Of a stretch of 64,000 bases of DNA, positions 5,278-51,684 are shown one piece after another (position 1 is the first letter of the stretch; each line of letters opens with the position of its first letter). The DNA is from an uncultured bacterium (GTDB taxonomy: Bacteria; Patescibacteriota; Minisyncoccia; UBA6257; 2-01-FULL-56-20), in the NCBI GenBank assembly GCA_963696395.1, contig CAVOJZ010000002.1, forward strand, positions 720,619 to 784,618, read 5' to 3'. A program made the position numbers and the translations under genes. The notes below the pieces were generated by a model. The model had not been told where the DNA came from, searched no databases, and saw only the letters and a list, made by a program, of their open reading frames with translations.

Positions 5278-7878
5278 ATGAAGCGCATGCCAAAGAAGAT
5301 CGGTTTCGGAATGGCTTTCGGGGCATTAGCTTTCCTTTTCTTAGTTTCTAAATCATTTGCACAGGTTCCGCCGGGCGGTCCGCCTCCTTCGCCCGATCAA
5401 ACACCCCCAACGGCAACCACGACCTATCCGGTTAATAACCAGACGGTTTCTTCGACTATTACAATTTCAGGAACGGCGGCTGACGACGTAGCCGTTGCAT
5501 CAGTGGCAGTTTCGATTGATGGCGGGGCATATGCTAATGCATCTGGGACGACGGCTTGGACTTATGTTTGGAACACGACGAGCGTCGCGAACGGTTCTCA
5601 CACCATTGAAGCTCAAGCAATTGACACTTCGGGAAATACAGGTCTTGCGCCGGTCGTAACGGTTAATGTCAGTAATTCCGGTGGAGGCGGCACTCAACCA
5701 CCGACAGCGCCTACAAACCTTGCAGTTACGGGGACGACCACGAGTACGGTTTCTCTCGGCTGGACTGCATCCAACGCGGGAACCTATCCGATCGCAGGAT
5801 ATCAGGTGTTCCGTTGTACGGGCGTATGCACACCGAGCGTGCAGGTTGCAACTTCAACCGGTACCGGTACGATGTTCACCGACGTTGGCCTTGCAGCGTC
5901 AACGACCTATTCATATTCAATAGACGCTTACGATACTCACGGCAACGTAGGCAGTAAGTCGTCGGTGGTTCAAGGAACAACAAGAGCATCATCAGATACC
6001 CAGCCTCCCACGGTTTCAATTACATATCCAACGAGCGGCGCCACGGTGTCTTCGACGATTACGGTAACGGCTACCGCTTCGGACAATGTCGGTGTGGTGA
6101 AAGTTGAGTTTTATCTCGATGGATTTTTGCAGTTTAGTACCACCACCCCACCTTATTATTGGATCTGGGATACTACGTCAACCGCAAACGGTTCTCATAC
6201 TCTTTCCGCCAAAGCCTACGATGCCGCAGGCAATGTTGGCACGAGTGCCGATGTTCCGATTACGGTAAATAACCCCGACACTCAGCCGCCGAGCGATCCA
6301 ACAAATTTGGCAGTTACGGGCGTCACAACGTCAACGATTTCACTCAGCTGGACGGCAAGCGTTGATAATGTTGGCGTAACCGGTTATAAGATCTATCGTT
6401 GCGGAGGCGTTTGTATTCCAAGCACCCAGATCGGCACAGCGACGGCGACCGCATTCACCGACGTCGGCCTTGCAGCCTCAACAACCTACAGCTACGCTGT
6501 TTCAGCTTATGATGCCGCCGGCAATAATTCCGGTAAGTCGAACGTGGTGAGCGGTTCCACAAAGTTTTTAGATCTTCAGCCTCCAACGGTCAGCATGACC
6601 GCGCCGGCAAATAACTCAACGGTGTCGAGCACGGTCACTCTGTCGGCGACTGCGTCGGATAATGTCGGTGTCGCATCCGTTCAGTTTAAGATCGACGGAA
6701 CGCTTGTTGGGTCGCCGATTACAACATCACCATATAACTATGCTTGGGATTCTCGGACGGTTGCGAACGGTAATCACGCCATCACCGCTCTTGCGATAGA
6801 CACTTCCGGTAACCAGGCAACTTCTGCGCCGGTAAACGTAACGGTAACGAACGTGTCTTCAACCGACACACAGCCTCCGACAACGCCGACCAATCTTGTC
6901 GTCACCGGCGTTACAACTTCCACAATTTCATTGAGTTGGAACCCCAGCATGGACAATGTGGGAGTCGCCGGCTACAAAGTCTTTCGGAATGGTACGCAGG
7001 TTGGAACGCCAAGCGCGACCTCCTTCACGGATATTGGCCTCGCAGCTTCAACGACTTACACGTACACGGTGAGCGCATTCGATGCTGCCGGCAATAATTC
7101 ATCGTCTTCTGCGCCGGTCTCCGGAACGACTTTGCCAATTAACGACCTTATTCCGCCGAGCGTAACCATTACGTATCCGACAAACAATCAGACGGTAGCA
7201 GGATCTTTCACGGTCTCCGGCACCGCCTCGGACAATGTCGGCGTTTCCTCGGTTCAGATTTCAATCGATGGCGGTACATATCAGGCCGCCCAAGGGACAA
7301 CTTCATGGACGTATCAACTCGATACCACGACGCTTGGCAATGGCAATCATACGATCACTGCAGAGGCAACCGATCTCGCTGGTAACACAAATTCTACGGC
7401 GGTGCTTATTACCGTGGACAACGGCAATGGCAACGGAGGAGGTTGCGAGGAGAACTGTGGTGGCGGCAACGGCAACGGAGGAGGCAATGGTTCGGGGGGC
7501 GGTGGCGGCGCGGGTTCCGGGACCGGCAGCGGGACTGGGACGGGTTCCGGAACCGGTGGCTCTCTTTCTCAGCTTCTTCAAACCCTTCTCGCAGAACTCC
7601 AGGCTCTTATTTCCCAATTAAACACGCAGATCGTCGCAACGCTCACAAGGAATCTCACGATCGGATCTCGCGGAACCGACGTCCAGAATCTCCAGGTCTT
7701 CCTGAACGACAATGGCTATCAAATCTCCACGGCTGGTGCTGGTTCGCCGGGTTACGAATCAACTTACTTCGGTGCCAAGACAGCTGCGGCGCTTGCCAAA
7801 TGGCAAAAAGCGAATGGACTTCCTGACACCGGATTCTTTGGTCCTCTAACTCGGAAGTTTATGGAGGCTAATTGGTGA
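5278..7878 (+). CDS. secreted repeat protein with four bacterial Ig-like/FN3 pairs and a C-terminal peptidoglycan-binding domain
   Basis: Signal peptide. The unit (Ig-like ...SSTITISGTAADDVAV... followed by FN3-like PTNLAVTG..TTSTVSL.WTAS...YKVFR) recurs four times. A Gly/Asn linker (GNGNGGG...GSGTGSGTG) precedes a PG_binding_1-like tail (GSRGTDVQNLQVFLNDNGY...AALAKWQKANGLPDTGFFGPLT). Confidence 0.8.
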   Translation: MKRMPKKIGFGMAFGALAFLFLVSKSFAQVPPGGPPPSPDQTPPTATTTYPVNNQTVSSTITISGTAADDVAVASVAVSIDGGAYANASGTTAWTYVWNTTSVANGSHTIEAQAIDTSGNTGLAPVVTVNVSNSGGGGTQPPTAPTNLAVTGTTTSTVSLGWTASNAGTYPIAGYQVFRCTGVCTPSVQVATSTGTGTMFTDVGLAASTTYSYSIDAYDTHGNVGSKSSVVQGTTRASSDTQPPTVSITYPTSGATVSSTITVTATASDNVGVVKVEFYLDGFLQFSTTTPPYYWIWDTTSTANGSHTLSAKAYDAAGNVGTSADVPITVNNPDTQPPSDPTNLAVTGVTTSTISLSWTASVDNVGVTGYKIYRCGGVCIPSTQIGTATATAFTDVGLAASTTYSYAVSAYDAAGNNSGKSNVVSGSTKFLDLQPPTVSMTAPANNSTVSSTVTLSATASDNVGVASVQFKIDGTLVGSPITTSPYNYAWDSRTVANGNHAITALAIDTSGNQATSAPVNVTVTNVSSTDTQPPTTPTNLVVTGVTTSTISLSWNPSMDNVGVAGYKVFRNGTQVGTPSATSFTDIGLAASTTYTYTVSAFDAAGNNSSSSAPVSGTTLPINDLIPPSVTITYPTNNQTVAGSFTVSGTASDNVGVSSVQISIDGGTYQAAQGTTSWTYQLDTTTLGNGNHTITAEATDLAGNTNSTAVLITVDNGNGNGGGCEENCGGGNGNGGGNGSGGGGGAGSGTGSGTGTGSGTGGSLSQLLQTLLAELQALISQLNTQIVATLTRNLTIGSRGTDVQNLQVFLNDNGYQISTAGAGSPGYESTYFGAKTAAALAKWQKANGLPDTGFFGPLTRKFMEANW

Positions 7879-8858
7879 CATTGATTTCGCCAATGAAAAA
7901 ATATTTAATCGGATGTTGTGCGGCAGCCGCTCTCGCGATCCCTCTCTTTGTAAATGCCGCACAGATCTATCTCGACCCCGCAACGGGAAAATTCCCTCCG
8001 GGAGTAACGTTTGCGGTTGATGTCCGCTTAGATAACCAAAACCAATGCATAAACGCGGCGGAAGTGGATCTTTCGTATCCTCCGAGTATGCTTCAGGCGG
8101 TCGGCGCAAGCGACGGTGATTCAATTTTTTCTTTATGGGTGAAGCCGCCGACGATATACTCCGACTATGGTCTTGTATCGTTTGTTGGGGGATTACCGGG
8201 TGGTTACTGCGGCCGCGTTTCCGGAGATCCAAGCTTGAGCAATAAACTTGCAACCATCTATTTCCGTTTTCCAACGTCAAGCTCGCCGGTTGCTTCGACA
8301 ACCATTCTTCAAAGCGTCCACCTTTCTTTCATTAGCAGCACGCAAGCCGTGGTTGACGATGGCCTCGGCACATTTGCCGTTTTGAAGACGGGTGGAGCAA
8401 CCTATACGCCACAAGCGTTGAAAGGCCAGTACGTTTCGCTGAATGCTCTGAATGATGCGATCGTGGACGATACGACACCACCGGAGCCATTCACGGTGGG
8501 CATCTATCGGGATCCATCACTTTTTAGCAACCAATGGTTTGCGGTGTTTTCGACCGTAGATAAGCAAACCGGTATTGACCATTATGACGTTGCCGAAGTT
8601 CCAATTCCGCAATTAAGTCAGGATCAGAGCCAATGGAATTGGGTTCGCGCCGTCAGCCCGTACCTCATCAAAAACCAAAATCTGAACGAGGTGATCGCTG
8701 TACGCGCAGTAGACGTTGCCGGGAATACCCGGGTTGAGCAATCAACGCCACCGCCGGCGCCAAAACTTAACAACTGGCAGATGGCAATACTTCCATACCT
8801 GGCAATCATTGGAGTCGCAGGCTTCACGATCTTCCAGATCATCATTCACCTCTTCTGA
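7872..8858 (+). CDS. membrane-anchored cohesin-like domain protein
   Basis: Signal peptide. The N-terminal domain (IYLDPATGKFPPGVTFAVDVRL...SIFSLWVKPP...) is homologous to the cohesin-like domain of 23408..25186. A C-terminal TM helix is present (AILPYLAIIGVAGFTIFQIIIHLF). Confidence 0.6.
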   Translation: MVTLISPMKKYLIGCCAAAALAIPLFVNAAQIYLDPATGKFPPGVTFAVDVRLDNQNQCINAAEVDLSYPPSMLQAVGASDGDSIFSLWVKPPTIYSDYGLVSFVGGLPGGYCGRVSGDPSLSNKLATIYFRFPTSSSPVASTTILQSVHLSFISSTQAVVDDGLGTFAVLKTGGATYTPQALKGQYVSLNALNDAIVDDTTPPEPFTVGIYRDPSLFSNQWFAVFSTVDKQTGIDHYDVAEVPIPQLSQDQSQWNWVRAVSPYLIKNQNLNEVIAVRAVDVAGNTRVEQSTPPPAPKLNNWQMAILPYLAIIGVAGFTIFQIIIHLF

Positions 8859-8927: not shown

Positions 8928-9398
8928 TTAATCCATTCGAACCTCCAGCTTCCTCGATTTATTTCGGTTGGTTTTTGGCATTTTCACCGAAAGGATGCCG
9001 TTCTTAAACTTAACACTGGCTAATTCGGGGTTTACCTCCTCGGGAAGGATGATAGAACGCGTAAATTTGCCCCAATAGCATTCCTGGTGGAGATACTCGG
9101 CATCGGTGCCTTCGGTTTCCCTGCGGCGAAGCCCTTTTATTGAAATAGAATCCGGGCTGACGTTAACGTCTATGTCCTCGGGTCGCGCGCCCGCAATAGC
9201 CGATTCAACGACGATATCGTTTGGGGTGTGGTAGATGTCCACTGTAAGCTGGCCAATCGGCCCTTCTTGCTCCTCGGGAGCGGTTTTCCCGGGCTCAGGG
9301 ATTACAAGCGCCGATTTGGCAAGATCAATCTTATATTCGGGGTCTTCCACATTGGATTTTCCGGAAGCAAGCCTTCTGAAAAACGAAAGATTGTCCAT
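8928..9398 (-). CDS. Hsp20/alpha-crystallin family small heat shock protein
   Basis: Alpha-crystallin domain motifs: VDIYHT.NDIVVESAIAGARPEDIDV.V..DSISIKG ... FTRSIILPEEV.PELASVKFKNGILSVKMPK. Confidence 0.85.
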   Translation of the reverse strand: MDNLSFFRRLASGKSNVEDPEYKIDLAKSALVIPEPGKTAPEEQEGPIGQLTVDIYHTPNDIVVESAIAGARPEDIDVNVSPDSISIKGLRRRETEGTDAEYLHQECYWGKFTRSIILPEEVNPELASVKFKNGILSVKMPKTNRNKSRKLEVRMD

Positions 9399-13262: not shown

Positions 13263-13691
13263 ATGCGCGAAACAATTAATTTAGCGGAACAGCACGACGT
13301 ACCACGGCCCCGTCGGGGGAGAATGCTTATCACGGTGATCGTTGTCGTTGCGGTTGTTCTACTTGGATGGTGGTACGTGAATGGCGCAACGCAATGGAAA
13401 GCGGTTTTTCTTACGAACAACCAGGTATACTTTGGACATTTTTGGGATGTTCCGTTTGCCGGGACGATTACCCTCAGGAACGTGTACTATCTCCAATTTT
13501 CAACACCGGGTCAACAACTCGACACTCAGGATCAATCGCAGCTGAAGCTGGTGAAACTTGGAAGTGAGATCCACGGTCCGACCGATGAGATGGTGATCCC
13601 TATATCGCAGGTGCTTTTCTGGGAGACACTCCGCTCCGATAGTGCGATCGTAACGACCATCAAGAATGGGCAGACTCAAACCACTCCATAA
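13263..13691 (+). CDS. small membrane-anchored hypothetical protein
   Basis: N-terminal TM segment (MLITVIVVVAVVLLGWWYV) and a 142-aa frame sitting inside the operon. Confidence 0.5.
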   Translation: MRETINLAEQHDVPRPRRGRMLITVIVVVAVVLLGWWYVNGATQWKAVFLTNNQVYFGHFWDVPFAGTITLRNVYYLQFSTPGQQLDTQDQSQLKLVKLGSEIHGPTDEMVIPISQVLFWETLRSDSAIVTTIKNGQTQTTP

Positions 13692-15015
13692 ATTAATCAT
13701 CGCGGTGCTTTCGGGGGCGTTGGTTGCGGCGCTCGCAATGCCATTGGTTCGCACATTTGCCGATACGGCTTCGAGCACCGATTTTATGATTCAGGATGGG
13801 TTTGTTGGATTTTTTGGCGGCTATGCCTCATCAACCGATTTTCAGGTTGTGAGCGGCGGTGCGCCGATCATCAATTCGAATGCAACCAGCTCGGATTTTA
13901 ATTCGAATACCGGACCTGTGAATTACGGCGATTTTTCCCCGGTATCGCAAACGTGGCGGTGGTACGGCGATCCGAACGATGAAACGCCGACCAGTTCGCT
14001 TGCCGCAGAAAATACGGCGCCGTCGAATATTGCAAACGCCCAAATAATCAAACTACGGCTCAACATAAAGGAAACAAGCGGGATCATGGGAAGCGACAAT
14101 CTCAAGTTCCGGTTGGAGTACGCCGAGTCGTCAGATTTTACGGTCGCGCCCGGTTTTGTCGCCGAGGCGACGGGTTGCGGCGCTACGTCAACCTGGTGCT
14201 ATGCCACGAGCACCGGCGGCAATGATAATCAGATTATCTCGACCGCAATTCTTTCAACAAGCAACCCGTGCAGCGGAGGTGTCGGCAATGGTTGCGGCAC
14301 CCACAACACTTCGGGCATAAGTTCGGCAACGTCAACGCAGAACGCCGGCGCGACAACGGAATATGAATTTACCATCGTCGCATCGGGCGCCGGCAGCGGC
14401 AACACGTATTTCTTCCGTCCGATAAATACCGCAGACGGAAGCGTTGTTCCGCTCGGGGCCACATCGAGTTATCCAAGCCTTGTGACGCAGGGAGCAACAC
14501 TTACCTTTAGCGTGAGCGGTTTGCCACAAAGCACGAGTACGAACGGCGTCACGACAAATGTTTCAACGACGGCAACGGGGATACCATTCGGCACGCTTGC
14601 GCTTGGCACGAGCACGATCGGAGCGCAACGGTTGTACGTTTCAACCAACGCGGCGAACGGATATGAATTGTATACCGAGCAGGATCAACCGCTCATGGAC
14701 TCGCGCGGCGACCTCGTCCCCGGAGTTTTAGGGACCAACGCCAGTCCGCTTCCGTGGGCAAACGCCTGCGCCGCAACTTCGACGGGATGTTATGGCTATC
14801 ACGCCGGCAGTTCGGTGCTTTCAGGCGGTTCAACGCGGTTCGCCGCCGCCGACAGTTACGCCGCGCTCACCTCGACGATCGCCGAAGTCGGCTATAGCGG
14901 ATTTCCTATAACGAGCAGCACGATGGACATGGTCTACCGTGTCCAGGTCGCGGGAACTCAAGTGACCGGAGCGTATCAGGACAATCTCATGTATGTCGTC
15001 GCACCATCATACTGA
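13666..15015 (+). CDS. secreted surface protein carrying the shared C-terminal module (WxL-like)
   Basis: Signal peptide. C-terminal region (GIPFGTLALGT...NGYELYTEQDQ...QDNLMYVVAPSY) aligns with the C-termini of 17150, 18417, 26980 and 33629. Confidence 0.65.
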   Translation: MGRLKPLHKLIIAVLSGALVAALAMPLVRTFADTASSTDFMIQDGFVGFFGGYASSTDFQVVSGGAPIINSNATSSDFNSNTGPVNYGDFSPVSQTWRWYGDPNDETPTSSLAAENTAPSNIANAQIIKLRLNIKETSGIMGSDNLKFRLEYAESSDFTVAPGFVAEATGCGATSTWCYATSTGGNDNQIISTAILSTSNPCSGGVGNGCGTHNTSGISSATSTQNAGATTEYEFTIVASGAGSGNTYFFRPINTADGSVVPLGATSSYPSLVTQGATLTFSVSGLPQSTSTNGVTTNVSTTATGIPFGTLALGTSTIGAQRLYVSTNAANGYELYTEQDQPLMDSRGDLVPGVLGTNASPLPWANACAATSTGCYGYHAGSSVLSGGSTRFAAADSYAALTSTIAEVGYSGFPITSSTMDMVYRVQVAGTQVTGAYQDNLMYVVAPSY

Positions 15016-16007
15016 TGAATAAAAGATTTTTTCATACTATAGCGTTCGTGATGGTTGCGATCGGCCTTGTCGTCCGCGGATTTTTTATGTCCGAGGCGTT
15101 TGCCGCGGATCTCGTGGTCTCGCCGGCGGTGATAGACGGGAACGGCGTGCCCAACGACATTTTGAATTACACCGTTACGGTTGTTAACACAACAGGACAA
15201 CAGCAAAATGTATTTGCCTCGGTCTATGAACTCACGCCAAGCGGAACGCAGCCATTTACCGACCCTTCCGATTCAAATCGGCCGGCGTTGCTCTCCGATT
15301 GGATCAGCGTCACGCGCGGCGCGTTGTTGTTTGCTCCGCACGAGTCAAAGACATTGCCGGTTACCGTACAAATCAATCCATATGCGCTCGCGGGGGATTA
15401 CCACGCCGTCATTGCCTTCGTTGAGGGGGGCACCCGTGATGATGCCGAAACGCATCTTGTTGGTGCGCCGCAAGCCATCGTCAACATGTCCGTTGCATCA
15501 AATCTGGTGGCGAGCCTGAAGATCGACGCATTCGCTACAGCAAAAGGATTTTATTCCGGATTTCCGGTGGACTTTAATTACACAATCGAAAATTCCGGCG
15601 ATGTCGCCGCAACGCCATCGGGCCAGATCATGCTCTACGACCGTCTGGGGCACGAAATCGGTTCTCTTGACGCGAATCCGAACGGGATAAGCATTGCCCC
15701 GGGAGAAAAAAAATCGTTTAGCGCGACATGGTCGAGCGGCAGCGGACTTGGACAATATAAAGCGGTCCTTGATATTTCATACGGAGCGGACAATGATAGA
15801 CTTGAAAACACGGCGATCGTCTGGGTTTTGCCGTGGAAAAAACTCGCGATTATATTCGGCTCGCTCTTCGTTGTTATGATTATTACGGCCCTATGGTTGC
15901 ACCATGAATATGCGAAGCGCCATCATCGCCGCCGCCGCGCGCTCGAAGCCTTGTTAAAAAGGAAAACCATGGAGCCAATTCTCGACCTTCGCCATCCCCA
16001 TGAATAA
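15015..16007 (+). CDS. cell-surface protein with signal peptide plus C-terminal TM anchor (DUF916/CscA-like architecture)
   Basis: Signal peptide and an approximately 250-aa beta-rich ectodomain. A C-terminal TM (LAIIFGSLFVVMIITALWL) is followed by a basic tail (HHEYAKRHHRRRRA). Paralog of 16000, 19610 and 35578. Confidence 0.65.
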   Translation: MNKRFFHTIAFVMVAIGLVVRGFFMSEAFAADLVVSPAVIDGNGVPNDILNYTVTVVNTTGQQQNVFASVYELTPSGTQPFTDPSDSNRPALLSDWISVTRGALLFAPHESKTLPVTVQINPYALAGDYHAVIAFVEGGTRDDAETHLVGAPQAIVNMSVASNLVASLKIDAFATAKGFYSGFPVDFNYTIENSGDVAATPSGQIMLYDRLGHEIGSLDANPNGISIAPGEKKSFSATWSSGSGLGQYKAVLDISYGADNDRLENTAIVWVLPWKKLAIIFGSLFVVMIITALWLHHEYAKRHHRRRRALEALLKRKTMEPILDLRHPHE

Positions 16008-17073
16008 AAAAGTTGCCATCATCTCTCTTGTCTTTGTCTGCTCAGCGCTGCTTTTGCCTGCGGTGTCGTTTGCGCAATCCGCGGATTCAACTTCACTCAC
16101 CATCACGCCGCCGTTTTTCGAATTGAATGTGAGCCCCGGTGATTCGTGGTCGAGTTCGATCAGAGTGGTAAATACCAACGCAACCGATATTCAGGTTCAC
16201 GCGATCGTCATGGGCTTCGCTGCATCCGATGCCGAAGGGCACGGAAACTTTATCCCATTGTCCAATTTGTCGGGGGATAGCGATGCGCTCGCGAACTGGG
16301 TCACCGTTTCACCCTCCCCGATCACTGTGCCCCGGGGTGGTGCAACGGACGTCCCGTTTTCGATTTCGGTTCCATCGGACGCGTCACCCGGAGGCCATTA
16401 TGGCGCGATACTTATCGGAACGGGGGCGCCGACGGTTGCTTCGGGGACGTCGCAGGTCGGCGTGAGCAGCTATATTTCTGCACTGATTTTCGTGAGCGTC
16501 GCGGGCAATATAGTTAATTCGGCGCAAATCACTCAATTTTCAACAGACAAGGGTGCTTATCAGGCGCCGGATGTTCATTTCGCGGTCCGTGTACAAAATG
16601 ACGGCAATGTTCATGTGCGACCGGTTGGGTTCATTCAAATATACAACGCGTTCGGCAAGAAACGAGGTGAAATTCCTATAAATCAGTCGGGTAGTCTCGG
16701 ATATATCCTGCCGTCGAGCACCCGTGAATTCGATGTTGAATGGCAGGGAACGCCGAGTTTGCTTGATATCGGACCTTATACTGCCGTCGTGAGCCTTGCC
16801 TATGGGGAAAACGGCATCGACAGTATCTCGGAAACCGTTGGATTTTGGATTGTGCCAATTTGGCAGATTTTGGAGGTTCTTTTTGTGGCTTTGATCATCT
16901 CACTACTCTTTATATTTATCGTTCGTCGCTCCGTCCGGAAAATGCTTGCAAATGAGATGTCGCGATACGGCGAAATTCCGCCGTCGCAGCCAGAGCAAAA
17001 GAAAGCTTCCGAAAAAAAGAATAATTTATCATCCGGCGGGCACGACTCCGGAACTATCGACTTGAGAAGATAG
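16000..17073 (+). CDS. cell-surface protein, paralog of the anchor family (DUF916-like)
   Basis: Signal peptide. Conserved motif SPGGHYGAILIGTGAP. C-terminal TM (ILEVLFVALIISLLFIFIV) plus basic tail. Confidence 0.7.
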   Translation: MNKKVAIISLVFVCSALLLPAVSFAQSADSTSLTITPPFFELNVSPGDSWSSSIRVVNTNATDIQVHAIVMGFAASDAEGHGNFIPLSNLSGDSDALANWVTVSPSPITVPRGGATDVPFSISVPSDASPGGHYGAILIGTGAPTVASGTSQVGVSSYISALIFVSVAGNIVNSAQITQFSTDKGAYQAPDVHFAVRVQNDGNVHVRPVGFIQIYNAFGKKRGEIPINQSGSLGYILPSSTREFDVEWQGTPSLLDIGPYTAVVSLAYGENGIDSISETVGFWIVPIWQILEVLFVALIISLLFIFIVRRSVRKMLANEMSRYGEIPPSQPEQKKASEKKNNLSSGGHDSGTIDLRR

Positions 17074-17149
17074 GGAGCGATAGGCGATTGTGTATAACTT
17101 GCCGGCATTTTCGCGTTATAATACCTTCAAGAGCGAAATTTTTCTTTGC

Positions 17150-18286
17150 ATGCGGATTAATCGATCAACTTTAAGAAAAGACTTGTCTGTTTCGGCGGCG
17201 CTCGGTCTTTTTATCAGCATCACCTTGTGGACTGCCGGTTTTCAATATTTACCGATTGTTCATGCGGCGAGCCTTACTTCGGTGAAAGATACAATGAGCG
17301 ACTCCCGCCCCGGATATCCGGCTAACCACACGATCGTCTTCACGAATCCGTCTTCAACAGCAGCCGGACTCACCATTTCATACACCTTCGACCCCAATAC
17401 CAGCGCATTCGGCAGTGTCACTTCAACGAGTATTGCGAACGTTACTTCCACCGGTATGACCATCGTCTCCACCTGTTCGGCCGGCACCAACAACGTGAGT
17501 ATGGCAACAACCTCATATAACGTGCTCACCTTCACGGTCTGCGCGAGTAATACGGTTGCATCCGGAACGGTGACTCTGAAGATTCTCGGCAACACCATCA
17601 CGAACCCCACGAGCACCGGATCCTACATCATCCGCATCGGCGGCACCCAGCCGAGCTCGGCTGATACGCGTGTTGCCATTGTGAACGGCGTCAATGTGAC
17701 GGCCGCGGTTGCAACCACCTTCACTTTCACGGTTTCTCCGCTTGCGACATCAACCACACTCCTGAATAATGCGACGACGACGGGTAATGACACATCAACC
17801 ACTCTGCCGTTCGGAACCATCAGCCCGAATACCCACAACGAACTCGGTCAACAGCTCAACGTCACAACGAATGCTTCAAACGGGTTCGCGGTTACCATGC
17901 ATGAAGACCAGGACATGACAAGCAACAAGGGGAATGTCATCCACGTCTTCTCAAACGGAAACGCAACTTCAACGCCGAGCCCGTGGACTTCACCGCAGAA
18001 CATCATTAACCAGTCATGGACCTACGGTCATGTCGGTATCACGAGCGACGACGTGAGCAGCAGCATCGTCGGAGGACCGAATTTCGGAACCAGCACCCCG
18101 CTCTACGCAGGAAGTTTCAATCCGACATCAACGCTCACGGTATTCCTCTGGAATGGCCCGGCCGATGGCGTCACCCAGAATGTGGGAGCCGCGAAAGTTG
18201 CGGTGCGTATCGAAATCAGCCCTCTGCAGGCAGCCGCAAACGACTACACGAACAACCTAATCTACGTAGCGACGCCGGTGTTCTAA
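17150..18286 (+). CDS. secreted Thr/Ser-rich surface protein, tandem duplicate copy A (WxL-like C-terminus)
   Basis: Signal peptide. The mature region is about 99% identical to 18417..19553. Ends ...ANDYTNNLIYVATPVF. Start taken at the Met of MRINRSTLRKDL, by analogy with copy B. Confidence 0.7.
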   Translation: MRINRSTLRKDLSVSAALGLFISITLWTAGFQYLPIVHAASLTSVKDTMSDSRPGYPANHTIVFTNPSSTAAGLTISYTFDPNTSAFGSVTSTSIANVTSTGMTIVSTCSAGTNNVSMATTSYNVLTFTVCASNTVASGTVTLKILGNTITNPTSTGSYIIRIGGTQPSSADTRVAIVNGVNVTAAVATTFTFTVSPLATSTTLLNNATTTGNDTSTTLPFGTISPNTHNELGQQLNVTTNASNGFAVTMHEDQDMTSNKGNVIHVFSNGNATSTPSPWTSPQNIINQSWTYGHVGITSDDVSSSIVGGPNFGTSTPLYAGSFNPTSTLTVFLWNGPADGVTQNVGAAKVAVRIEISPLQAAANDYTNNLIYVATPVF

Positions 18287-19556
18287 GGATTAGGGGGTGT
18301 TGACAACAATGGAAATAGGTTGTGGATAACTACCCTTGAAATGTTGACAACTTGTTATGATACAATTATTACAAATGGAAATCGGGTCGATTTCCTACAT
18401 AAAATAAAATAAAAATATGTTAGCCAACTCGCGGAAACTCAGAAAAGACTTAACGGTCGCAATCACCTTCGGACTTCTCATCAGCCTTATCACGTGGTCG
18501 GTTGGTTTTCGATATCTCCAAACTGTGCATGCGGCCAGTTTGACGTCGGTTAGCGACACTTTGAGCGACTCCCGCCCCGGATATCCGGCTAACCACACGA
18601 TCGTCTTCACGAATCCGTCTTCAACAGCAGCCGGACTCACCATTTCATACACCTTCGACCCCAATACCAGCGCATTCGGCAGTGTCACTTCAACGAGCAT
18701 CGCGAACGTTACTTCCACCGGTATGACCATCGTCTCCACCTGTTCGGCCGGCACCAACAATGTGAGTATGGCAACAACCTCGTATAACACGCTCACCTTC
18801 ACGGTCTGCGCGAGTAATACGGTTGCATCCGGAACGGTGACTCTGAAGATTCTCGGCAATACCATCACAAACCCCACGAGCACCGGATCCTACATCATCC
18901 GCATCGGCGGCACCCAGCCGAGCTCGGCCGATACACGTGTTGCCATTGTGAACGGCGTCAATGTGACGGCCGCGGTCGCAACCACCTTCACTTTCACGGT
19001 TTCTCCGCTTGCGACATCAACCACGCTCCTGAATAATGCGACGACGACGGGTAATGATACCTCAACCACCCTGCCGTTCGGAACCATCAGTCCGAATACC
19101 CACAACGAACTCGGTCAACAGCTCAACGTCACAACGAATGCCTCAAACGGGTTCGCGGTTACCATGCATGAAGACCAGGATATGACGAGCAACAAGGGGA
19201 ATATCATCCACGTCTTCTCGAACGGAAACGCAACTTCAACGCCGAGCCCGTGGACTTCACCGCAAAATATTATCAACCAGCCATGGACCTACGGCCACGT
19301 CGGTATCACGAGCGATGACGTGAGCAGTACTTTGGTGGGTGGACCAAACTTCGGAACCAGCACCCCGCTCTACGCAGGAAGTTTCAATCCGACATCAACG
19401 CTCACGGTATTCCTCTGGAATGGCCCGGCCGATGGCGTCACCCAGAATGTGGGAGCCGCGAAAGTTGCGGTGCGTATCGAAATCAGCCCTCTGCAGGCAG
19501 CCGCAAACGACTACACGAACAACCTAATCTACGTAGCGACGCCGGTGTTCTAAGGA
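17270..19556 (+). repeat. direct tandem duplication of about 1.02 kb (two gene copies, about 99% nucleotide identity) separated by a unique spacer
   Basis: The coding sequence GAGCGACTCCCGCCCCGGATATCCGGCTAACCACACGATCGTCTTCACG... through ...ATCTACGTAGCGACGCCGGTGTTCTAAGG occurs twice. Only a handful of substitutions separate the copies. Confidence 0.85.
18417..19553 (+). CDS. secreted Thr/Ser-rich surface protein, tandem duplicate copy B
   Basis: The nucleotide sequence from about 18530 to 19556 is near-identical to 17270..18290. The signal peptide and upstream region diverge. Confidence 0.7.
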   Translation: MLANSRKLRKDLTVAITFGLLISLITWSVGFRYLQTVHAASLTSVSDTLSDSRPGYPANHTIVFTNPSSTAAGLTISYTFDPNTSAFGSVTSTSIANVTSTGMTIVSTCSAGTNNVSMATTSYNTLTFTVCASNTVASGTVTLKILGNTITNPTSTGSYIIRIGGTQPSSADTRVAIVNGVNVTAAVATTFTFTVSPLATSTTLLNNATTTGNDTSTTLPFGTISPNTHNELGQQLNVTTNASNGFAVTMHEDQDMTSNKGNIIHVFSNGNATSTPSPWTSPQNIINQPWTYGHVGITSDDVSSTLVGGPNFGTSTPLYAGSFNPTSTLTVFLWNGPADGVTQNVGAAKVAVRIEISPLQAAANDYTNNLIYVATPVF

Positions 19557-19609
19557 AAAGAGGGTCTTGCAGGCGGGTTCATATATGCTAGACTCAATTC
19601 ATAACCACG

Positions 19610-20716
19610 ATGGATATATTACGATCGGTGGGCGGATGGGCGGGTCGAGTGGCAGCTGGAGCAGCAATGGTTTTTGTTGCGAGCGTCGTCTTCCCCGCAG
19701 GTGTTTCGCATGCTCAGACCGCCGTTTCAATGAAAATTCAACCGGCGCTTTTCGAGCAAACGGTTAATCCCGGCGATAAATTTTCGACATCATTAACAGT
19801 CACAAACCCGGGAACCACCGCGAAGCAATTCTCGGTCGGTGTGCAGGATATCACCGGAATCGATCAGGCAGGTGAGCCGATCTTCAGCTCATCATCCGTT
19901 CCGGAATATGGCGTAAGCTCATGGGTGCAGCTTGGCGATACGGCAATAACGATTCCCGCGGGAGGGAGCGTTACCGTGCCATTCACGATAATGGTTCCGA
20001 AGAACGCCGGCCCCGGAGGGCATTACGGTGCGATTTTCATTTCCTCCGGCGCGACCCGGCCGCAATTTAACGGAACAGGACTTGGCTATGAAGTTGGTTC
20101 GCTCATTGAGCTTCGGATCGCCGGTGACGCGACCGAACAGGCGGAGATCAAAGAATTTTCAACCGACAAATCGTTGTATCAAACCCCGAATGTGACTTTT
20201 ACCGCCTCCGTCGCAGATGAGGGCAATATTCTTCTTCAGCCGCGGGGTCCGATCGATATCGTAAATATGTTTGGGCAGAAAGTGGGAACCGTTGTCATAA
20301 ACGACCAGGGTTCATCAATCTTCCCCGGCGATCAGCGCGCCTTCAATGTGACGTGGAACGGTGGCGGATTCATGTTTGGCCAATACAGCGCCGTTATGAC
20401 CTTGAATTATGGTGACACCGTAAATAAATCCATCTCGGCGTCATTGTCATTCTGGGTTGTTCCGATTATGCCGATCGTCGCTGTTCTCGCAAGCATCATA
20501 TTCTTTGTCCTGATATTCGTCTGGTCCGTTAAGGTGTATGTCCGCAAGCGCGTCCGATCCATGACCGGTGGTCGCCAGGAACGGTCATCTTCATCCGACG
20601 AAGAAACGTTGCTTTCGGGAGGCGGATTGCCACTCTCTCGCCTTGTATTCATCGTCATTGCGACCGCCATCTTCGCAGTCATTTTCTTGATCGCCCTATT
20701 CTTCTTCTTCGGATAA
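19610..20716 (+). CDS. cell-surface protein, paralog of the anchor family (DUF916-like)
   Basis: Signal peptide. Motif GPGGHYGAIFISSGATRP. C-terminal TM (IMPIVAVLASIIFFVLIFVW), a basic/Ser-rich linker, and a second hydrophobic segment at the very C-terminus. Confidence 0.7.
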   Translation: MDILRSVGGWAGRVAAGAAMVFVASVVFPAGVSHAQTAVSMKIQPALFEQTVNPGDKFSTSLTVTNPGTTAKQFSVGVQDITGIDQAGEPIFSSSSVPEYGVSSWVQLGDTAITIPAGGSVTVPFTIMVPKNAGPGGHYGAIFISSGATRPQFNGTGLGYEVGSLIELRIAGDATEQAEIKEFSTDKSLYQTPNVTFTASVADEGNILLQPRGPIDIVNMFGQKVGTVVINDQGSSIFPGDQRAFNVTWNGGGFMFGQYSAVMTLNYGDTVNKSISASLSFWVVPIMPIVAVLASIIFFVLIFVWSVKVYVRKRVRSMTGGRQERSSSSDEETLLSGGGLPLSRLVFIVIATAIFAVIFLIALFFFFG

Positions 20717-20723
20717 TAATTTC

Positions 20724-21095
20724 ATGAGAAAGCGGACGGTTTTGCTTCTCATCATGTTGGCGGGAGTCGCTTGTGTTTTCTTTTTTGTCGCTCGTGGGCG
20801 GGTTGCTTCACTTCCCAGCCTCATGGCGCAAATCGGCATAACGGTTGGCGTGGCACCGAATCCGTACAACACTTTAAACGATCAGCTTAATCAGGAACAG
20901 AATCAGCTGAATCAGCAGGCGGCCGATCTTGCGGCTCGCGAAGCGGCGCTCGCCAGTTCAACGGCCGCCGCCGATGCAGTTTCCTACACCGACTGGTATT
21001 TGAGTGCCGGGATTGCGGCCGTTGCGATTCTTGTTTCCCTGAATTTTTATCTTGATTGGCGGCGCGCCAAGCGGGAAGAAACACCTAAAGTGTAG
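20724..21095 (+). CDS. small membrane protein with a coiled-coil loop
   Basis: Two TM helices flank the loop NDQLNQEQNQLNQQAADLAAREAALAS. Confidence 0.5.
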   Translation: MRKRTVLLLIMLAGVACVFFFVARGRVASLPSLMAQIGITVGVAPNPYNTLNDQLNQEQNQLNQQAADLAAREAALASSTAAADAVSYTDWYLSAGIAAVAILVSLNFYLDWRRAKREETPKV

Positions 21096-21118: not shown

Positions 21119-22804
21119 GTGAAGCATCGACTCCAAAGATTGAGTATTCTCACGGCGGCGTGCCTCGCCATTTTTTCTTTTGCGAAAGCGCTTCCGGTCG
21201 CGCATGCTTCCCAATTGTCGTTTGTGAGCGATACCATCAACGACTCCAGATTATCATGGCCCACCAACCACCAGATCGTTTTTAAGGTCCCGAGCGGCAT
21301 ACCGGCCTCCGGCCAGATTGTTGTCGCGTTTGAAGGGGCGCCGTTTTTCATCGATCCCTCGTTCAGCTATACCGACGTGGATCTTGCCGTATCCACGGTT
21401 TCGCCAACTTCCGGCTTTGTCGAAAGACCTCTCGCGGGCATCCCCGGTTTTTTAAATGACGGCGTTGCCATAACTCCAACGACGGGTCCCATCACTATCA
21501 CATTGGCATCCAGCGTGGGTATTCCAGCGGGTGCGTATGTTCGAATTATGCTTGGCACGAATGCTCCCGGCGGTGTGTACCAGATTACCAATCCGGCAAC
21601 GACGGCGTCCTATCGCATTCTTCTTAATACTTTCGATCAACTCGGAGGCAATCTTGATTATGGTGCGGCAATGGTTGCAATTCTGCCCGCGATTGGTGTT
21701 AGCGCAAACACCGATGTGGTAAATCCACCAGTACTATCTAACGGCATGCCCTCAGGAACGATCCCTTCGAACGTTTCGGGAGTGCTCGTTTCTTTCAATA
21801 CCGATACGTACGCGACGTGTCACTATGCAACGTCGTCCGGAATTTCCTATGACGATATGACAAACGTCACGGCCGACGATGAGCTCGGCACAACGCATAC
21901 TTTTAATGTCGACGGCATCACGCAAGGGACGACCTATACGTTTTATGCCCGGTGCGAAGACTTTGCAGGAAATAAAAATCCGAGTGATTATATTATTTCT
22001 TTTACCGCCGGTGATCCAACAGGCGCTCCCGGTTCGGGAGGAGGCGGAGGGGGAGGCGGCGGCGCACCATATCCACCCGGCGCGCCAGGGCCCTCGCTCA
22101 CGTTGAGTGGTTTTACCGTGCCCAACGCAACCATCGTCGTCTTGCAGGACGGATCGAAGATCGCGCCAGCCACCACTGCGGATAATGGGGGATCATTTTC
22201 AGTGAGTATCGCATCTCTCCCGCAAGGAACTTATTCCTTTACCATTCAGGCATTGGGAACCGGCTCAACCGTGATTTCTTCGTACACGGCGACCATAACG
22301 CTCATTACCGGAACGTCGAATAGTATTACCGGAATCGTGATGCCCCCGTGGATCGGATTCGCGACAAGCTCGGTAGCCCTTAATAAATTATTTGCAATGT
22401 CGGGTTTGGCCGAGCCTTCATCAACTATCGATATTGTCGTTACGAGTCAGGCGGGAGTGCGAGGCATTTTCGAGGCAACAACTTCCGCAAATCAAAGCGG
22501 CGCATGGGCGTATTCGCTTTCGACGGCCGGATTCCCGATGGACACGTACCAGGTGAAAGCGCGAGCATTCATAACCGGGCTCGCTGCAAGCAATTTTTCC
22601 ACGATATCCTTCCTTGGCGTCGGTGAAACTCCGGTGCCGAAACTGAAAATAGGGGATTTAAACGGTGATAACAAAGTGAATCTTGTGGACTTCTCAATCA
22701 TGCTCGCCCATTGGGGGACGAGCTATGCCCCGGCCGACTTAAATGACGATGGCATCGTCGACCTTCCGGATTTAAGCATTTTACTTTTCAACTGGACGGG
22801 CTGA
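21119..22804 (+). CDS. secreted surface protein with a C-terminal dockerin module
   Basis: Signal peptide. The N-terminal domain is related to 17150/18417 (SDTINDSRLSWPTNHQIVFKVP versus SDSRPGYPANHTIVFTNP). A poly-Gly linker is present. The C-terminus carries two dockerin Ca-binding loops: DLNGDNKVNLVDFSIML...DLNDDGIVDLPDLSILLFNW. Confidence 0.75.
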   Translation: MKHRLQRLSILTAACLAIFSFAKALPVAHASQLSFVSDTINDSRLSWPTNHQIVFKVPSGIPASGQIVVAFEGAPFFIDPSFSYTDVDLAVSTVSPTSGFVERPLAGIPGFLNDGVAITPTTGPITITLASSVGIPAGAYVRIMLGTNAPGGVYQITNPATTASYRILLNTFDQLGGNLDYGAAMVAILPAIGVSANTDVVNPPVLSNGMPSGTIPSNVSGVLVSFNTDTYATCHYATSSGISYDDMTNVTADDELGTTHTFNVDGITQGTTYTFYARCEDFAGNKNPSDYIISFTAGDPTGAPGSGGGGGGGGGAPYPPGAPGPSLTLSGFTVPNATIVVLQDGSKIAPATTADNGGSFSVSIASLPQGTYSFTIQALGTGSTVISSYTATITLITGTSNSITGIVMPPWIGFATSSVALNKLFAMSGLAEPSSTIDIVVTSQAGVRGIFEATTSANQSGAWAYSLSTAGFPMDTYQVKARAFITGLAASNFSTISFLGVGETPVPKLKIGDLNGDNKVNLVDFSIMLAHWGTSYAPADLNDDGIVDLPDLSILLFNWTG

Positions 22805-22844: not shown

Positions 22845-23411
22845 ATGAGCTCTTTCTACGAAAAATTATCGGTGAAATTTCAGGATGGCGGGATCTCGGC
22901 ACCCGGCACCGGCACCGCGCCCGCAAAAACGGTCACTTTTAATGCGACCGGAGACCGAACTTCGCCAAAAAAAGCTGACGTCCCAGCCGCAACTCCACCG
23001 ACTGACGTGACGCCGGACGGCGCCGACCCGATTGATGTCGACCTTTTTCAATCCGAAACGCGGACCGTTGTTTTTATGCAATTGAGTGGCATTCCGGCGA
23101 ATGAACTTGCGGTGACGGTAAGCGAGGAATCAAACACGATCATTGTTGAGGCAGCGCAAAAACGTCCGGGTCTGCCTCCGTTACCCGGCGCAAAAGAAGG
23201 GGAACCGCCAGAGAAAGGAATCTATGTTAAGGCGGAGGTAAAGTGGCGCTCGCTGTACCGCAAGATCTATCTCCCGGCACCGTTTGATATCAGCGAAGCG
23301 ACCGCCACGCTCGACAAGGGCGTGCTCATTATAGTGTTGCCGGCAAAACATCCGGGCGTCGGCAAAAAAATGGTGGTTCAGGAAATCCGGCACGATGAAC
23401 AGAAAAAATGA
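22845..23411 (+). CDS. Hsp20/alpha-crystallin domain protein
   Basis: Alpha-crystallin domain motifs: IDVDLFQSETRTVVFMQLSGIPANELAVTV.EESNTIIVEA ... YRKIYLPAPFDISEATATLDKGVLIIVLPAK. The stop overlaps the start of the cohesin-like gene (ATGA). Confidence 0.7.
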   Translation: MSSFYEKLSVKFQDGGISAPGTGTAPAKTVTFNATGDRTSPKKADVPAATPPTDVTPDGADPIDVDLFQSETRTVVFMQLSGIPANELAVTVSEESNTIIVEAAQKRPGLPPLPGAKEGEPPEKGIYVKAEVKWRSLYRKIYLPAPFDISEATATLDKGVLIIVLPAKHPGVGKKMVVQEIRHDEQKK

Positions 23412-25186
23412 GGAAAGGGACATATCTTATTCTCGTCGCCCTTGGGTGGCTCATCGTTAGTCCGGGCATTTTTAATATCGCGGCGGCGCAAACGGCAGGA
23501 GGAAACGCCGCGCTCTCACTTTCACCTTCGAGCGGCTCGCACGCCGTCGGAGAAACGTTTACGGTGAGTGTCATGTTGGATTCCGGCGGCGGCGTGGGCG
23601 TAAATGCCGCCAATGGCGAATTGAGTTTTGACCCGACTCTCCTTGCGGTGCAAAGCGTTTCAAAAGACAATTCTATTTTTAATCTTTGGACGAGCAACCC
23701 TTCATTCTCGAATTCGCAGGGCACCGTTGATTATAGCGGCGGCAGCAACAATGCTTACACCGGAAATTCCGGGGATGTGGTTGATGTGACGTTTAAAGCG
23801 CTCGGTGCCGGCTCTGCGAATATAAAATTTGCATCGGCAAGCGCGCTTGCAGCCGATGGCCAGGGAACAAACGTCCTCGGCGGCACGACGGGCGCCGCCT
23901 ATACCATCGGAGGGGCGGCCGCAAAGCCGGCGGTGCCGGCATCGAATCCCGGATCCTCGCAGTCGCTCGCAAGCCCGGCGCAGGCTCCGTTCACGGTGAC
24001 GATCGCGGTCACATCTCCGACGCATCCGGATCCAAGTGCGTGGTACAACAACAACAGCCCGAATTTCACATGGGTACTCACGCCTGACGTTGCAGGCGTA
24101 AGCACTGCGCTCGATCAGAACCCGGGCACATATCCGAAGCGATCTTCTGCCGGCTTACTGTCGTCCAAGCAATATTCCGCCGTGCCGGAGGGGACATCGT
24201 ATTTCCATGTGCGTTTTGAAGATGCCCTTGGCGATTGGAGCGACCCAGTCAACTATCAGGTAAACATCGACGTGACGCCGCCGTTGCCCTTTACGGTGAG
24301 CGCTCTCACGGGTGCGGGTGTGAGCGGCAGGACCGAATTGATGTTCAATGCGACCGATACCGTTTCAGGGATCGATCATTACGTTGCAACGTTCGACGGA
24401 ACCATGTCGTCAACGATTGCATTGTCGGATGTCCAGAACGGCATATATACTGCTCCGCCGCTCCTGGCCGGCAAACATATTGTTGAAATAAGTGCATTCG
24501 ACAAGGCAGGCAATTATACGAGTGAAAATACCGAATTCACGATTTCCGGAGTTACGATGCCGGAGATCACTAATTTCCCAGCGACCGTCATCGAGAAATC
24601 TCCGATTGTTTTCGAAGGCATCGCCGACAGCGGGGCAAATGTTACGGTTGATATCAACGATGGCACCGGGAAAACGGTATCCGAGGGCAAGATGGTTGCC
24701 GATGAAACGGGCCATTGGCTGTACGCCGTCGAGAGCGGACTTTCAACCGGCAAGTATGCTCTCGGCGTTTCGATGGTTACAACGCAGGGTGCGTCCGTGA
24801 GTTCGACCGACAAATTGTTCCTCAATGTCATCATGGCCCCGTTCCTGGATCGATTCGGTTGGATCCTCATCATCCTTTTGCTGTCGTGCATCGGTGGACT
24901 TCTAACGTACGGCATGTACAAGAAGAAGATCCACGAAATGCAGCTCGCGCTTGCGAAACGGGAAAACGAAGAAGCGCGCGAAAAAACCAGGGCAGTGTTT
25001 GAAGCGCTGCGTGAGGAAATGGATGACCAGATCAGCCATATGGAAGGCGGTGCGGCGCAGGCGCAAGGTGAGGCCAAGCTTGAACCAGAGCGCGTCCTTG
25101 ATGAAGTGCGCAATGCGCTGGTGATTTCTGAGACGACCATTCAGAAGGAGATCGAGGACGTCAATAAGGCTCTCAATGAAGAATAA
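23408..25186 (+). CDS. membrane-anchored cohesin-like domain protein with a cytoplasmic coiled-coil tail
   Basis: Signal peptide. Cohesin-like N-terminal domain (SLSPSSGSHAVGETFTVSVMLDSGGGVGVNAANGELSFDP.LLAVQSV...SIFNLWTSNP...VVDVTFKALGAGSANIKF), then Ig-like domains. TM helix (FGWILIILLLSCIGGLLTYGMY), then a charged coiled coil of about 90 aa. Confidence 0.7.
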   Translation: MRKGTYLILVALGWLIVSPGIFNIAAAQTAGGNAALSLSPSSGSHAVGETFTVSVMLDSGGGVGVNAANGELSFDPTLLAVQSVSKDNSIFNLWTSNPSFSNSQGTVDYSGGSNNAYTGNSGDVVDVTFKALGAGSANIKFASASALAADGQGTNVLGGTTGAAYTIGGAAAKPAVPASNPGSSQSLASPAQAPFTVTIAVTSPTHPDPSAWYNNNSPNFTWVLTPDVAGVSTALDQNPGTYPKRSSAGLLSSKQYSAVPEGTSYFHVRFEDALGDWSDPVNYQVNIDVTPPLPFTVSALTGAGVSGRTELMFNATDTVSGIDHYVATFDGTMSSTIALSDVQNGIYTAPPLLAGKHIVEISAFDKAGNYTSENTEFTISGVTMPEITNFPATVIEKSPIVFEGIADSGANVTVDINDGTGKTVSEGKMVADETGHWLYAVESGLSTGKYALGVSMVTTQGASVSSTDKLFLNVIMAPFLDRFGWILIILLLSCIGGLLTYGMYKKKIHEMQLALAKRENEEAREKTRAVFEALREEMDDQISHMEGGAAQAQGEAKLEPERVLDEVRNALVISETTIQKEIEDVNKALNEE

Positions 25187-31027: not shown

Positions 31028-31028
31028 T

Positions 31029-32339: not shown

Positions 32340-32349
32340 TTTTTATATC

Positions 32350-47376: not shown

Positions 47377-47934
47377 ATGCATCCACGTGGATTTACGCTC
47401 ATCGAAATGATGATTGTTCTTGCGATCATTGTCATAATTGGCACGACCGTAACGCTCAATCTGTTCGGCAATCGATCGCATGCCGATCTCACAAACACCG
47501 CAAAGGAAATTGCGACAACCCTAAGACAGGCTCAAAGCGATTCATTGTCAAGCGAACAGGGTGGCGCTTGGGGCGTGCATTTTGATAATACAAGCTCAAC
47601 CCAGCCATATTATTCTTTAGTTTATACGTCGTCGACCAACATTGGTGGCGGCCTTACTGGCGGGAGTAGTGGTAGTGGATTCGTGATTACTACCGTGGGT
47701 CAATATAACCTGCCTGCCGATGTTTGTTATGCGTCATCGAGCATTGCGATAGGATCATCCACGAATATTTTTTTTAGCGAGGTTTCGGGTGCGCCGTCGG
47801 CAACGGCAACTATCGTTTTGGATCTGGTATTTGGCGGCGGTTGCCCATCGGTCACCGGAGGATCTTCCTCGACCATAACCAGGAGCGAAAGCGGGGAGTT
47901 ATTTTTTGATGACTTTAATCGGACAGTTTTATGA
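47377..47934 (+). CDS. type IV pilin/pseudopilin (prepilin-type N-terminal cleavage/methylation domain)
   Basis: MHPRG|FTLIEMMIVLAIIVIIG: canonical G-FTLIE class III signal and hydrophobic helix. Confidence 0.8.
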   Translation: MHPRGFTLIEMMIVLAIIVIIGTTVTLNLFGNRSHADLTNTAKEIATTLRQAQSDSLSSEQGGAWGVHFDNTSSTQPYYSLVYTSSTNIGGGLTGGSSGSGFVITTVGQYNLPADVCYASSSIAIGSSTNIFFSEVSGAPSATATIVLDLVFGGGCPSVTGGSSSTITRSESGELFFDDFNRTVL

Positions 47935-48493: not shown

Positions 48494-48494
48494 G

Positions 48495-51662: not shown

Positions 51663-51684
51663 TTCGCTGTGGTAAACTGAACAA

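Follow-up and report, generated by a model that had tools for sequence, protein, structure and literature searches.

A conserved operon of Patescibacteria combines WxLIP-like putative membrane anchors with secreted proteins that share a C-terminal module

How the ultra-small bacteria of the candidate phyla radiation (CPR; Patescibacteria) build their envelope and attach to their hosts is little understood, and most of their surface proteins are listed as 'hypothetical'. A 64,000-nt window—the whole stretch of DNA analysed here—from an uncultured Patescibacteriota genome (contig CAVOJZ010000002.1, positions 720,619-784,618) raises the question of how such proteins may be held on the cell: it encodes four similar proteins with the features of membrane anchors, which we term A, B, C and D, among genes for secreted proteins. 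A first-pass annotation had matched the four, by their architecture, to the DUF916/DUF3324 anchors of the CscA type found in Firmicute cell-surface clusters. Our analysis supports the anchor assignment, and does not support membership of a canonical Csc/WxL cluster.

WxLIP proteins, also called CscA or DufA, are found in Enterococcus, Lactiplantibacillus, Listeria and Bacillus, and in lactic-acid bacteria they keep secreted proteins at the cell surface. They combine a PF06030 domain (WxLIP_PGBD, or DUF916) with a WxLIP_HBD (DUF3324) domain, and peptidoglycan binding has been proposed for the Firmicute members.

Four anchor paralogues and their kinship with WxLIP

Scanning all six frames of the window with a hidden Markov model (HMM) of the anchor family returned exactly four open reading frames (ORFs), namely A to D, and no others; all lie on the plus strand, at the coordinates given in the first-pass annotation, which had described them as four ORFs of one design. 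BLASTP related B to C (38% identity, E 7e-65), A to B (27%, E 7e-27) and D to B (21% over the full length, E 6e-5), and HHalign matched D to the family profile with a probability of 95.7% (E 9.3e-9). Against the family HMM, A scored E 6e-76 and D E 7.4e-8. Judged by these sequence comparisons, the four are true paralogues.

A hydropathy scan, on which all signal-peptide and transmembrane (TM) calls are based, found in every copy a hydrophobic, signal-like N-terminus, a C-terminal TM segment and a tail rich in K, R and H (TM residues 271-297 and a tail with 14 K/R/H in A; residues 287-318 and 8 K/R/H in D). These parts of the architecture described earlier thus apply to all copies, and its beta-rich ectodomain is borne out by a structure model of B. 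The single TM helix ascribed to each of the four does not fit C, which has hydrophobic segments at residues 274-313 and 337-368, with a loop of ~25 residues between them, and is not single-pass. A second terminal hydrophobic segment recurs in 40 of 42 C-type and 53 of 81 B-type orthologues, and many members of the family are probably two-pass at the C-terminus. As for the N-terminus of A, the gene caller of a Logan contig (L001) puts the start 12 codons downstream, giving 318 amino acids (aa).

For B, AlphaFold2 run on an alignment of 70 sequences gave a model with a mean pLDDT (predicted local distance difference test) of 89.6, in which two beta-sandwich domains (residues 33-284, the second spanning 175-284) precede a long helix (287-324). 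The sole low-confidence stretch of the ectodomain is a loop at residues 141-157 (pLDDT 75-82), directly after the strand that carries the motif PGGHYGAI. This motif, which had been reported as PGGHYGAI[LF]I in two copies, was indeed found in B (PGGHYGAILI) and C (PGGHYGAIFI); A (AGDYHAVIAF) and D (LGNYSGNIQV) have degenerate versions of it.

Profile and structure comparisons relate this family to WxLIP. HHalign aligned the family profile with seven Firmicute reference proteins annotated as 'DUF916 and DUF3324 domain-containing' (Enterococcus, Bacillus, Lactiplantibacillus, Melissococcus, Levilactobacillus plasmids). This alignment has a probability of 98.9% (E 1.2e-17); its 245 collinear columns run through both domains and cover template columns 14-280 of 351. 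Among PDB sequences, the same profile matched EfmWxLIP1 (9i25_C and 9i1y_A; E 2.6e-6, query 44-279 against chain residues 22-255). The best fold matches of the B model were likewise the WxLIP chains of 9i25 and 9i1y, with 9i25_C ('WxLIP from Enterococcus faecium locus A bound to long WxL') ranking first in Foldseek (E 6.4e-11).

Pfam gave a more divided answer. PF06030 scored 24.2 bits in B (E 3.6e-5) and 19.6 bits in C (E 1e-3), both under the 27.3-bit cut-off, and did not match A or D; A matched DUF11/CARDB, and D had no match at E <= 0.01. DUF3324 was absent from the Pfam scans of the window proteins and of 70 family members. These sub-threshold scores and missing matches count against a WxLIP assignment; yet PF06030 is matched by 43 of the 70 family members under an E-value limit of 0.01, with 1.9e-10 as the lowest value. 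For the second immunoglobulin (Ig)-like domain, it is the profile alignments and the second sandwich of the B model that extend the likeness. An NCBIfam scan of anchors and partner proteins found nothing above cut-off, and one CPR homologue bears a UniRef name beginning 'DUF9', indicating that database annotation has touched the family. Taken together, the comparisons support the anchors as members of the WxLIP superfamily, as a divergent branch that scores under the present Pfam thresholds; the tie is one of homology, not of architecture alone.

The operon and its C-terminal module

Named relatives of B belong to Minisyncoccia, Candidatus Paceibacterota, Microsaccharimonas and Levyibacteriota. 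Scanning one genome per GTDB species with the pattern AxPGGHY[AG][AG]I returned 276 relatives, and the best 80 of these are almost all Patescibacteria (Paceibacterota, Kaiser-, Adler-, Jorgensen-, Lloyd- and Doudnabacteria, and metagenome-assembled genomes labelled Saccharibacteria). These best 80, from GTDB species representatives, make up our locus survey. The pattern is specific to the B/C subfamily, and the survey speaks for Patescibacteria loci, not for other phyla. Anchors at the surveyed loci were typed by their best match to A, B or C.

All-against-all comparison of the secreted neighbours in the window revealed two modules. The first, of ~190 aa and here termed the C-module, is common to the proteins encoded at 13666-15015, 17090-18286 and 18417-19553; the second, the N-module of ~150 aa, is common to 17090-18286, 18417-19553 and the dockerin protein 21119-22804 (N-module HMM, E 1e-15). 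The proteins 17090-18286 and 18417-19553 are tandem duplicates, 93% identical over 378 aa (BLASTP). As listed, 17090-18286 begins at a GTG and thereby gains 20 residues at its N-terminus; translation probably does not truly begin there. A homologue search with 18417-19553 returned at least 923 relatives, showing high conservation in Paceibacterota; no Pfam domain was found in these relatives. The AlphaFold2 model of 18417-19553 (pLDDT 90.6) has two beta domains.

The C-module itself has no Pfam or NCBIfam match in the window proteins. A search of its profile against 1.84 billion cluster representatives yielded 924 clusters (defined at 50% identity) under a threshold of E <= 1e-3, of which 453 also pass E <= 1e-10. 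Of the 147 proteins retrieved, which span 154 to 1767 aa, 146 carry the module as their extreme C-terminal part, as do all 116 module genes from the survey loci; its consensus ends in LQEAGDYxNTLTYVATPxF-COOH. We dismissed an outer-membrane-protein-style C-terminal signal as an explanation of the TPxF-COOH ending, given a monoderm-like lineage and models that show soluble beta-sandwiches. The earlier statement that the secreted proteins share a C-terminal module holds as to the sharing; there are, however, two distinct C-terminal modules, the second of which accompanies D (see below).

Around the anchors, the genes form a plus-strand run with almost no intergenic space. Some coding regions even run into one another, by 1 nt where 13666-15015 stops and A starts and by 8 nt between A and B, which suggests translational coupling within an operon. 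With w denoting a secreted protein that bears the C-module and n the secreted protein with the N-module and a dockerin, this first cluster reads w-A-B-w-w-C-(small TM protein)-n, and the arrangement is matched gene for gene at another locus (L010), including the counterpart of 13666-15015 at the same position.

The survey showed the pairing of anchors and modules to be the rule. Two or three anchor paralogues occur at 79 of the 80 loci, and at least one C-module gene lies within 6 kb at 74 of them (39 of 39 among loci with full flanks). All 116 module genes are on the strand of the nearest anchor gene, at a median gap of 15 bp and, for 105 of them, within 200 bp. The order w-A-B-w-C-n was seen 27 times, most of the others being truncations such as wAB; the gene for the n protein has a fixed place at the end of the operon. 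Relatives of the small proteins 13263-13691 and 20724-21095 occur at 21 and 39 of the 80 loci, respectively. The pairing is also kept in more distant lineages: a Saccharimonadia genome (L009) and a Levyibacteriota genome (L011) each encode two anchors, with flanking proteins whose ends (GSYATQLTYIATTNF, GAYTSNLTYVATANY and TDYSDTLTIIASATF) align with the C-module. That three anchor types are conserved in a fixed order suggests specialised pairings or a hetero-complex.

Table 1 Anchors, secreted neighbours and further genes discussed in the text (positions within the window)
Feature	Position	Strand	Length (aa)	Basis or remark
Small protein with one N-terminal TM segment, head of the first cluster	13263-13691	+	142	Hydropathy scan; no Pfam match
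Secreted w protein with C-module	13666-15015	+	449	C-module HMM, residues 277-449, E 4e-22; no Pfam match
Anchor A, WxLIP-like type A	15015-16007	+	330	
Anchor B, WxLIP-like type B	16000-17073	+	357	PGGHYGAI motif
Secreted two-domain protein, N-module and C-module	17090-18286	+		Module HMM matches; tandem paralogue of 18417-19553
Secreted two-domain protein, N-module and C-module	18417-19553	+	378	N-module 38-186, C-module 185-378
Anchor C, WxLIP-like type C	19610-20716	+	368	PGGHYGAI motif; second C-terminal hydrophobic helix
Small protein with hydrophobic N-terminus, Q/A-rich middle, C-terminal TM segment and basic tail	20724-21095	+	123	Hydropathy scan
Secreted n protein with N-module, Ig-like domains and C-terminal dockerin	21119-22804	+	561	Pfam Big_13, Big_6, Dockerin_1
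Secreted protein with DUF2341 and LamG (concanavalin-like) domains	26980-29517	+	845	Pfam
Secreted protein with variant C-terminal module	33629-35458	+	609	Directly upstream of D
Anchor D, WxLIP-like divergent type D	35578-36600	+	340	
Secreted dockerin protein	36630-37760	+	376	Directly downstream of D; Pfam DUF4215, Big_6, Dockerin_1

A docking model and the readings that compete with it

What might the pairing be for? We think it probable that the anchors are membrane-tethered, WxLIP-like docking proteins, which would display the C-module-bearing secreted proteins non-covalently. From the signal-like N-termini and the positive-inside rule, we infer that A to D would be exported by Sec and reside as type-I proteins in the cell's own membrane, with the C-terminal helix inserted, the basic tail in the cytoplasm and the two Ig-like domains outside. 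The proposed docking step is drawn by analogy from E. faecium, where a WxLIP has been solved bound to the neighbouring long WxL protein (9i25), and from published AlphaFold predictions, in which a disordered hairpin of the WxLIP DUF916 domain becomes a strand completing the WxL beta-sandwich (PMC10599100). In like manner, the first Ig domain of an anchor may capture the C-module of the neighbouring secreted protein by beta-strand insertion or complementation, the flexible loop after the PGGHYGAI strand (residues 141-157 of B) being the likely binding element. Passengers, be they small, medium or very large, would thereby be held on the cell surface, and they are probably the main surface-coat or host-attachment proteins of an episymbiotic, monoderm-like CPR cell.

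In its behaviour, the C-module resembles WxL: it is always C-terminal, occurs in small to very large proteins and flanks the anchor gene, just as the WxL domain has been described as C-terminal, present in small and very large proteins and encoded beside the anchor gene (PMC9772566, PMC10599100). Inspection by eye revealed three collinear motifs, namely L-x-FG, then TNA-x-x-G[FY]-x-V in the C-module versus RG-x-x-x-GW-x-L in WxL, and lastly Y-x-x-T-L-T-Y-V-A-T-P versus Y-T-T-T-L-T-W-x-L-x-x-x-P; a B. cereus protein annotated as WxL has the sequence ...LTYSIVTGP. An HMM built from 19 Firmicute WxL sequences and run with filters off gave its best score among 148 C-module sequences at 13.7 bits (E 3.4e-4), in register at both domain ends, compared with a maximum of 9.0 bits among 4440 shuffled decoys. 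Scores of at least 5 bits were reached by 10% of the real sequences, versus 1.1% of shuffled and 2% of reversed ones. A homologue search from a small L. plantarum WxL protein found close relatives only and added little depth.

Several results speak against this equation. Both WxL tryptophans are replaced in the C-module by Tyr or Phe (G[FY]xV and LTY[VI]A). HHalign between C-module and WxL reached P 0.035-0.05 with a probability of just 1-1.5%; these values came from deeper profiles, a shallow partner profile against 10 WxL sequences having yielded 0.2% probability. PF13731, the WxL family, was not detected in the partner proteins or 58 homologues even at E <= 10, and PDB sequence searches with partner profiles returned no match or a chance lectin match only. 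Foldseek with the whole two-domain partner model found MSCRAMM-type adhesins, integrins, BslA and the TasA fibre (8aur), and the WxL chain of 9i25 was not among its top 50 matches. On balance, homology between the C-module and WxL appears likely from these alignments, but it is not established.

The same evidence bears on cluster membership. A WxL cluster has been defined as at least one WxLIP and at least two WxL proteins within four genes (PMC10599100). Here, three proteins adjoining the anchors carry the C-module with its weak in-register similarity to WxL, and none has a PF13731 match; with no WxL domain that can be recognised as such, the locus taken together appears to fall outside that definition. 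The host, moreover, is a CPR bacterium and not a Firmicute, which places the window beyond the range typical of WxL clusters: more than 91% of WxL sequences come from Firmicutes, and 99% of those from Bacilli (PMC9772566). A motif search found no LPXTG sorting signal in any genuine ORF of the window; the slot comparable to that of the small LPXTG (CscD-type) protein of Firmicute clusters is filled by 20724-21095, which lacks the motif. With such a host, neighbours that are not WxL by Pfam and no LPXTG component, membership of a canonical cluster is not supported.

The main rival to docking is that the anchors are membrane-tethered assembly chaperones, which, in the manner of chaperone-usher pilus chaperones, would cap the C-terminal strand of the 378-aa subunit by donor-strand complementation and then release it to polymerise as a fibre or surface lattice instead of keeping it for good. 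After WxLIP, the best Foldseek matches of B are indeed the pilus chaperones CsuC, CfaA and Caf1M (E 1e-9 to 1e-7), although the TM-scores are modest (0.3-0.4 on the query) and the nearest relative in sequence is WxLIP, not a pilus chaperone. The partner proteins stop exactly at a conserved aromatic C-terminus, as chaperone-bound pilus subunits also do, and the Foldseek matches of the partner model to the TasA fibre and BslA, though weak, point the same way. So does the 378-aa protein itself, which is very conserved, occurs in tandem copies and has a mature N-terminal segment in common with 21119-22804. Against polymerisation, its monomer model is confident throughout, with no sign of a missing strand, and the Pfam scan of the cluster proteins found no usher-like or other polymerisation component. 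We regard this reading as unlikely, though worth keeping in mind.

A second alternative takes the anchors as stand-alone adhesins, whose Ig-like ectodomains would bind host-cell or polysaccharide ligands and whose linkage to the module genes would reflect co-regulation. Single family members weakly match DUF11, CARDB, fn3_5 and NPCBM_assoc, the window is rich in other surface proteins with cohesin, dockerin, fn3 and LamG domains, and the second WxLIP domain has been proposed to bind host cells (PMC10599100). Yet the fixed gene order, the ~15-bp gaps and the common strand of all 116 module genes are tighter than co-regulation alone needs; the nearest solved relative was crystallised bound to a neighbouring WxL protein, and the C-module is strictly C-terminal, as a docking tag would be. 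We therefore consider this explanation improbable. Least credible is that the anchors are unrelated Ig-fold membrane proteins whose likeness to DUF916/DUF3324 is beta-sandwich convergence, a reading in keeping with the sub-threshold PF06030 scores, the missing DUF3324 match and the hundreds of Ig-like Foldseek matches at E <= 1e-3, and already disfavoured to the point of being very improbable by the profile-profile alignment with its 245 collinear columns, by a sequence-only profile match to EfmWxLIP1 that spans both domains, by the PF06030 matches in 43 of 70 members, and by a domain order, TM helix and gene context identical to those of WxLIP.

Under the docking reading, the locus links a phylum-wide conserved operon to a structurally solved system, the E. 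faecium WxLIP bound to WxL, and offers a testable model of how passengers of ~150 to 1700 residues may be held on the cell by a large docking-type module that lies outside Pfam and NCBIfam. A WxL-type system, regarded until now as all but confined to Bacilli, would thereby reach into a lineage far removed from them; and should the C-module be confirmed as a WxL homologue, the tryptophans that give WxL its name would be dispensable. A bolder version, which we put forward tentatively and hold somewhat less probable than its opposite, is that CPR bacteria possess an ancient, tryptophan-less counterpart of WxL/WxLIP, with three specialised membrane anchors in an operon of set order and a docking-tagged, unannotated family of ~900 clusters as the main route to surface coat and host attachment. 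Were this true, the WxL domain and its anchor would predate the split of CPR and Bacillota. Of the papers listed by our full-text literature search, those that name CPR taxa do not mention DUF916; searches pairing DUF916 or WxL with CPR, and searches on CPR S-layer or adhesin structures, yielded nothing specific.

Further genes of the window and comparison with known systems

D lies apart from the other anchors, between a protein with a variant C-terminal module and a dockerin protein (Table 1). The variant module is a C-terminal region of ~270 aa that 33629-35458 shares with 26980-29517 (32% identity over 315 aa, E 1e-21; BLASTP); its similarity to the first C-module is marginal (HHalign P 0.03-0.05). 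No anchor gene adjoins 26980-29517. The order (variant-module protein)-D-(dockerin protein) is kept in two related metagenome contigs (L093 and L095), and the linkage of D thus rests on two close relatives. The stretch 31002-33555, flanked by the fn3 protein 29543-31027 and the D cluster, encodes an ABC ATPase and what by eye is an FtsX/MacB-type permease; this gene order is kept in the same two contigs. The dockerin protein 36630-37760 is 34% identical to the C-terminal half of 21119-22804.

Cohesin and dockerin genes are interspersed among the anchor clusters. Proteins with a cohesin and a C-terminal TM segment are encoded at 7872-8858 and 23408-25186, and the two proteins ending in a type I dockerin, 21119-22804 and 36630-37760, each lie just downstream of an anchor cluster. 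In locus L012, too, the cluster is followed by a cohesin gene, and in L010 the operon ends with a dockerin protein. Manual inspection further revealed small proteins resembling Hsp20/alpha-crystallin at 8928-9398 (minus strand) and 22845-23411 (plus strand), the latter between the dockerin gene 21119-22804 and the cohesin gene 23408-25186. From the translations, the region 47377-54599 holds a protein with a type IV prepilin-like N-terminus (MHPRGFTLIEMMIVL), followed by more large secreted proteins of 1086, 217 and 754 aa. Three paralogous secreted or membrane proteins (41875-43440 and 54653-56149 on the minus strand, 56379-57395 on the plus strand) have a C-terminal region of ~300 aa in common (…FRGVQFDIEPY…MAYRN…), likewise seen in the translations.

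Set beside known systems, the anchors are closest to WxLIP. Both fit into ~330-370 aa a signal peptide or signal-like N-terminus, two tandem Ig-like beta-sandwiches, of which the second is recognised in the anchors at profile and fold level, a TM helix towards the C-terminus and a short tail of charged character; the FFELN motif in the N-terminal strand of WxLIP corresponds to a conserved YFDLK in the Patescibacteria family, and in both cases the gene adjoins genes for secreted proteins with a domain found at the C-terminus only. They differ in that the anchors of the window come from Patescibacteria rather than Bacilli, with ~15% identity to EfmWxLIP1, that an operon encodes two to three anchor types in a fixed order where a WxL cluster typically has one (PMC10599100), and that the C type and many B-type orthologues carry a second hydrophobic helix.

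The partner proteins, in turn, invite comparison with WxL proteins (CscB/CscC, SwpA/LwpA, ElrA; PF13731). As in these, the module is the last domain of proteins that range from the domain alone to very large ones and that flank the anchor gene; unlike WxL, the module of the CPR proteins has an aromatic residue as the very last one of the chain, has Tyr or Phe in place of the tryptophans and is without a Pfam match.

To the chaperones of the chaperone-usher pathway (PapD, Caf1M, CsuC, CfaA), the anchors are alike in their L-shaped fold of two Ig domains, and, under the docking model, they would likewise complete a partner's beta-sheet with a donated strand. The likeness is one of fold, no sequence similarity having been detected between the anchors and these chaperones, which are soluble and reside in the periplasm of diderm bacteria, where their partner is an outer-membrane usher, whereas the anchors appear membrane-tethered in a monoderm-like lineage. 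Cohesin-dockerin display, finally, which the window also encodes, resembles the proposed system in tying secreted proteins non-covalently to a scaffold anchored in the membrane; its folds and partners are unrelated, making it a co-located and possibly cooperating system.

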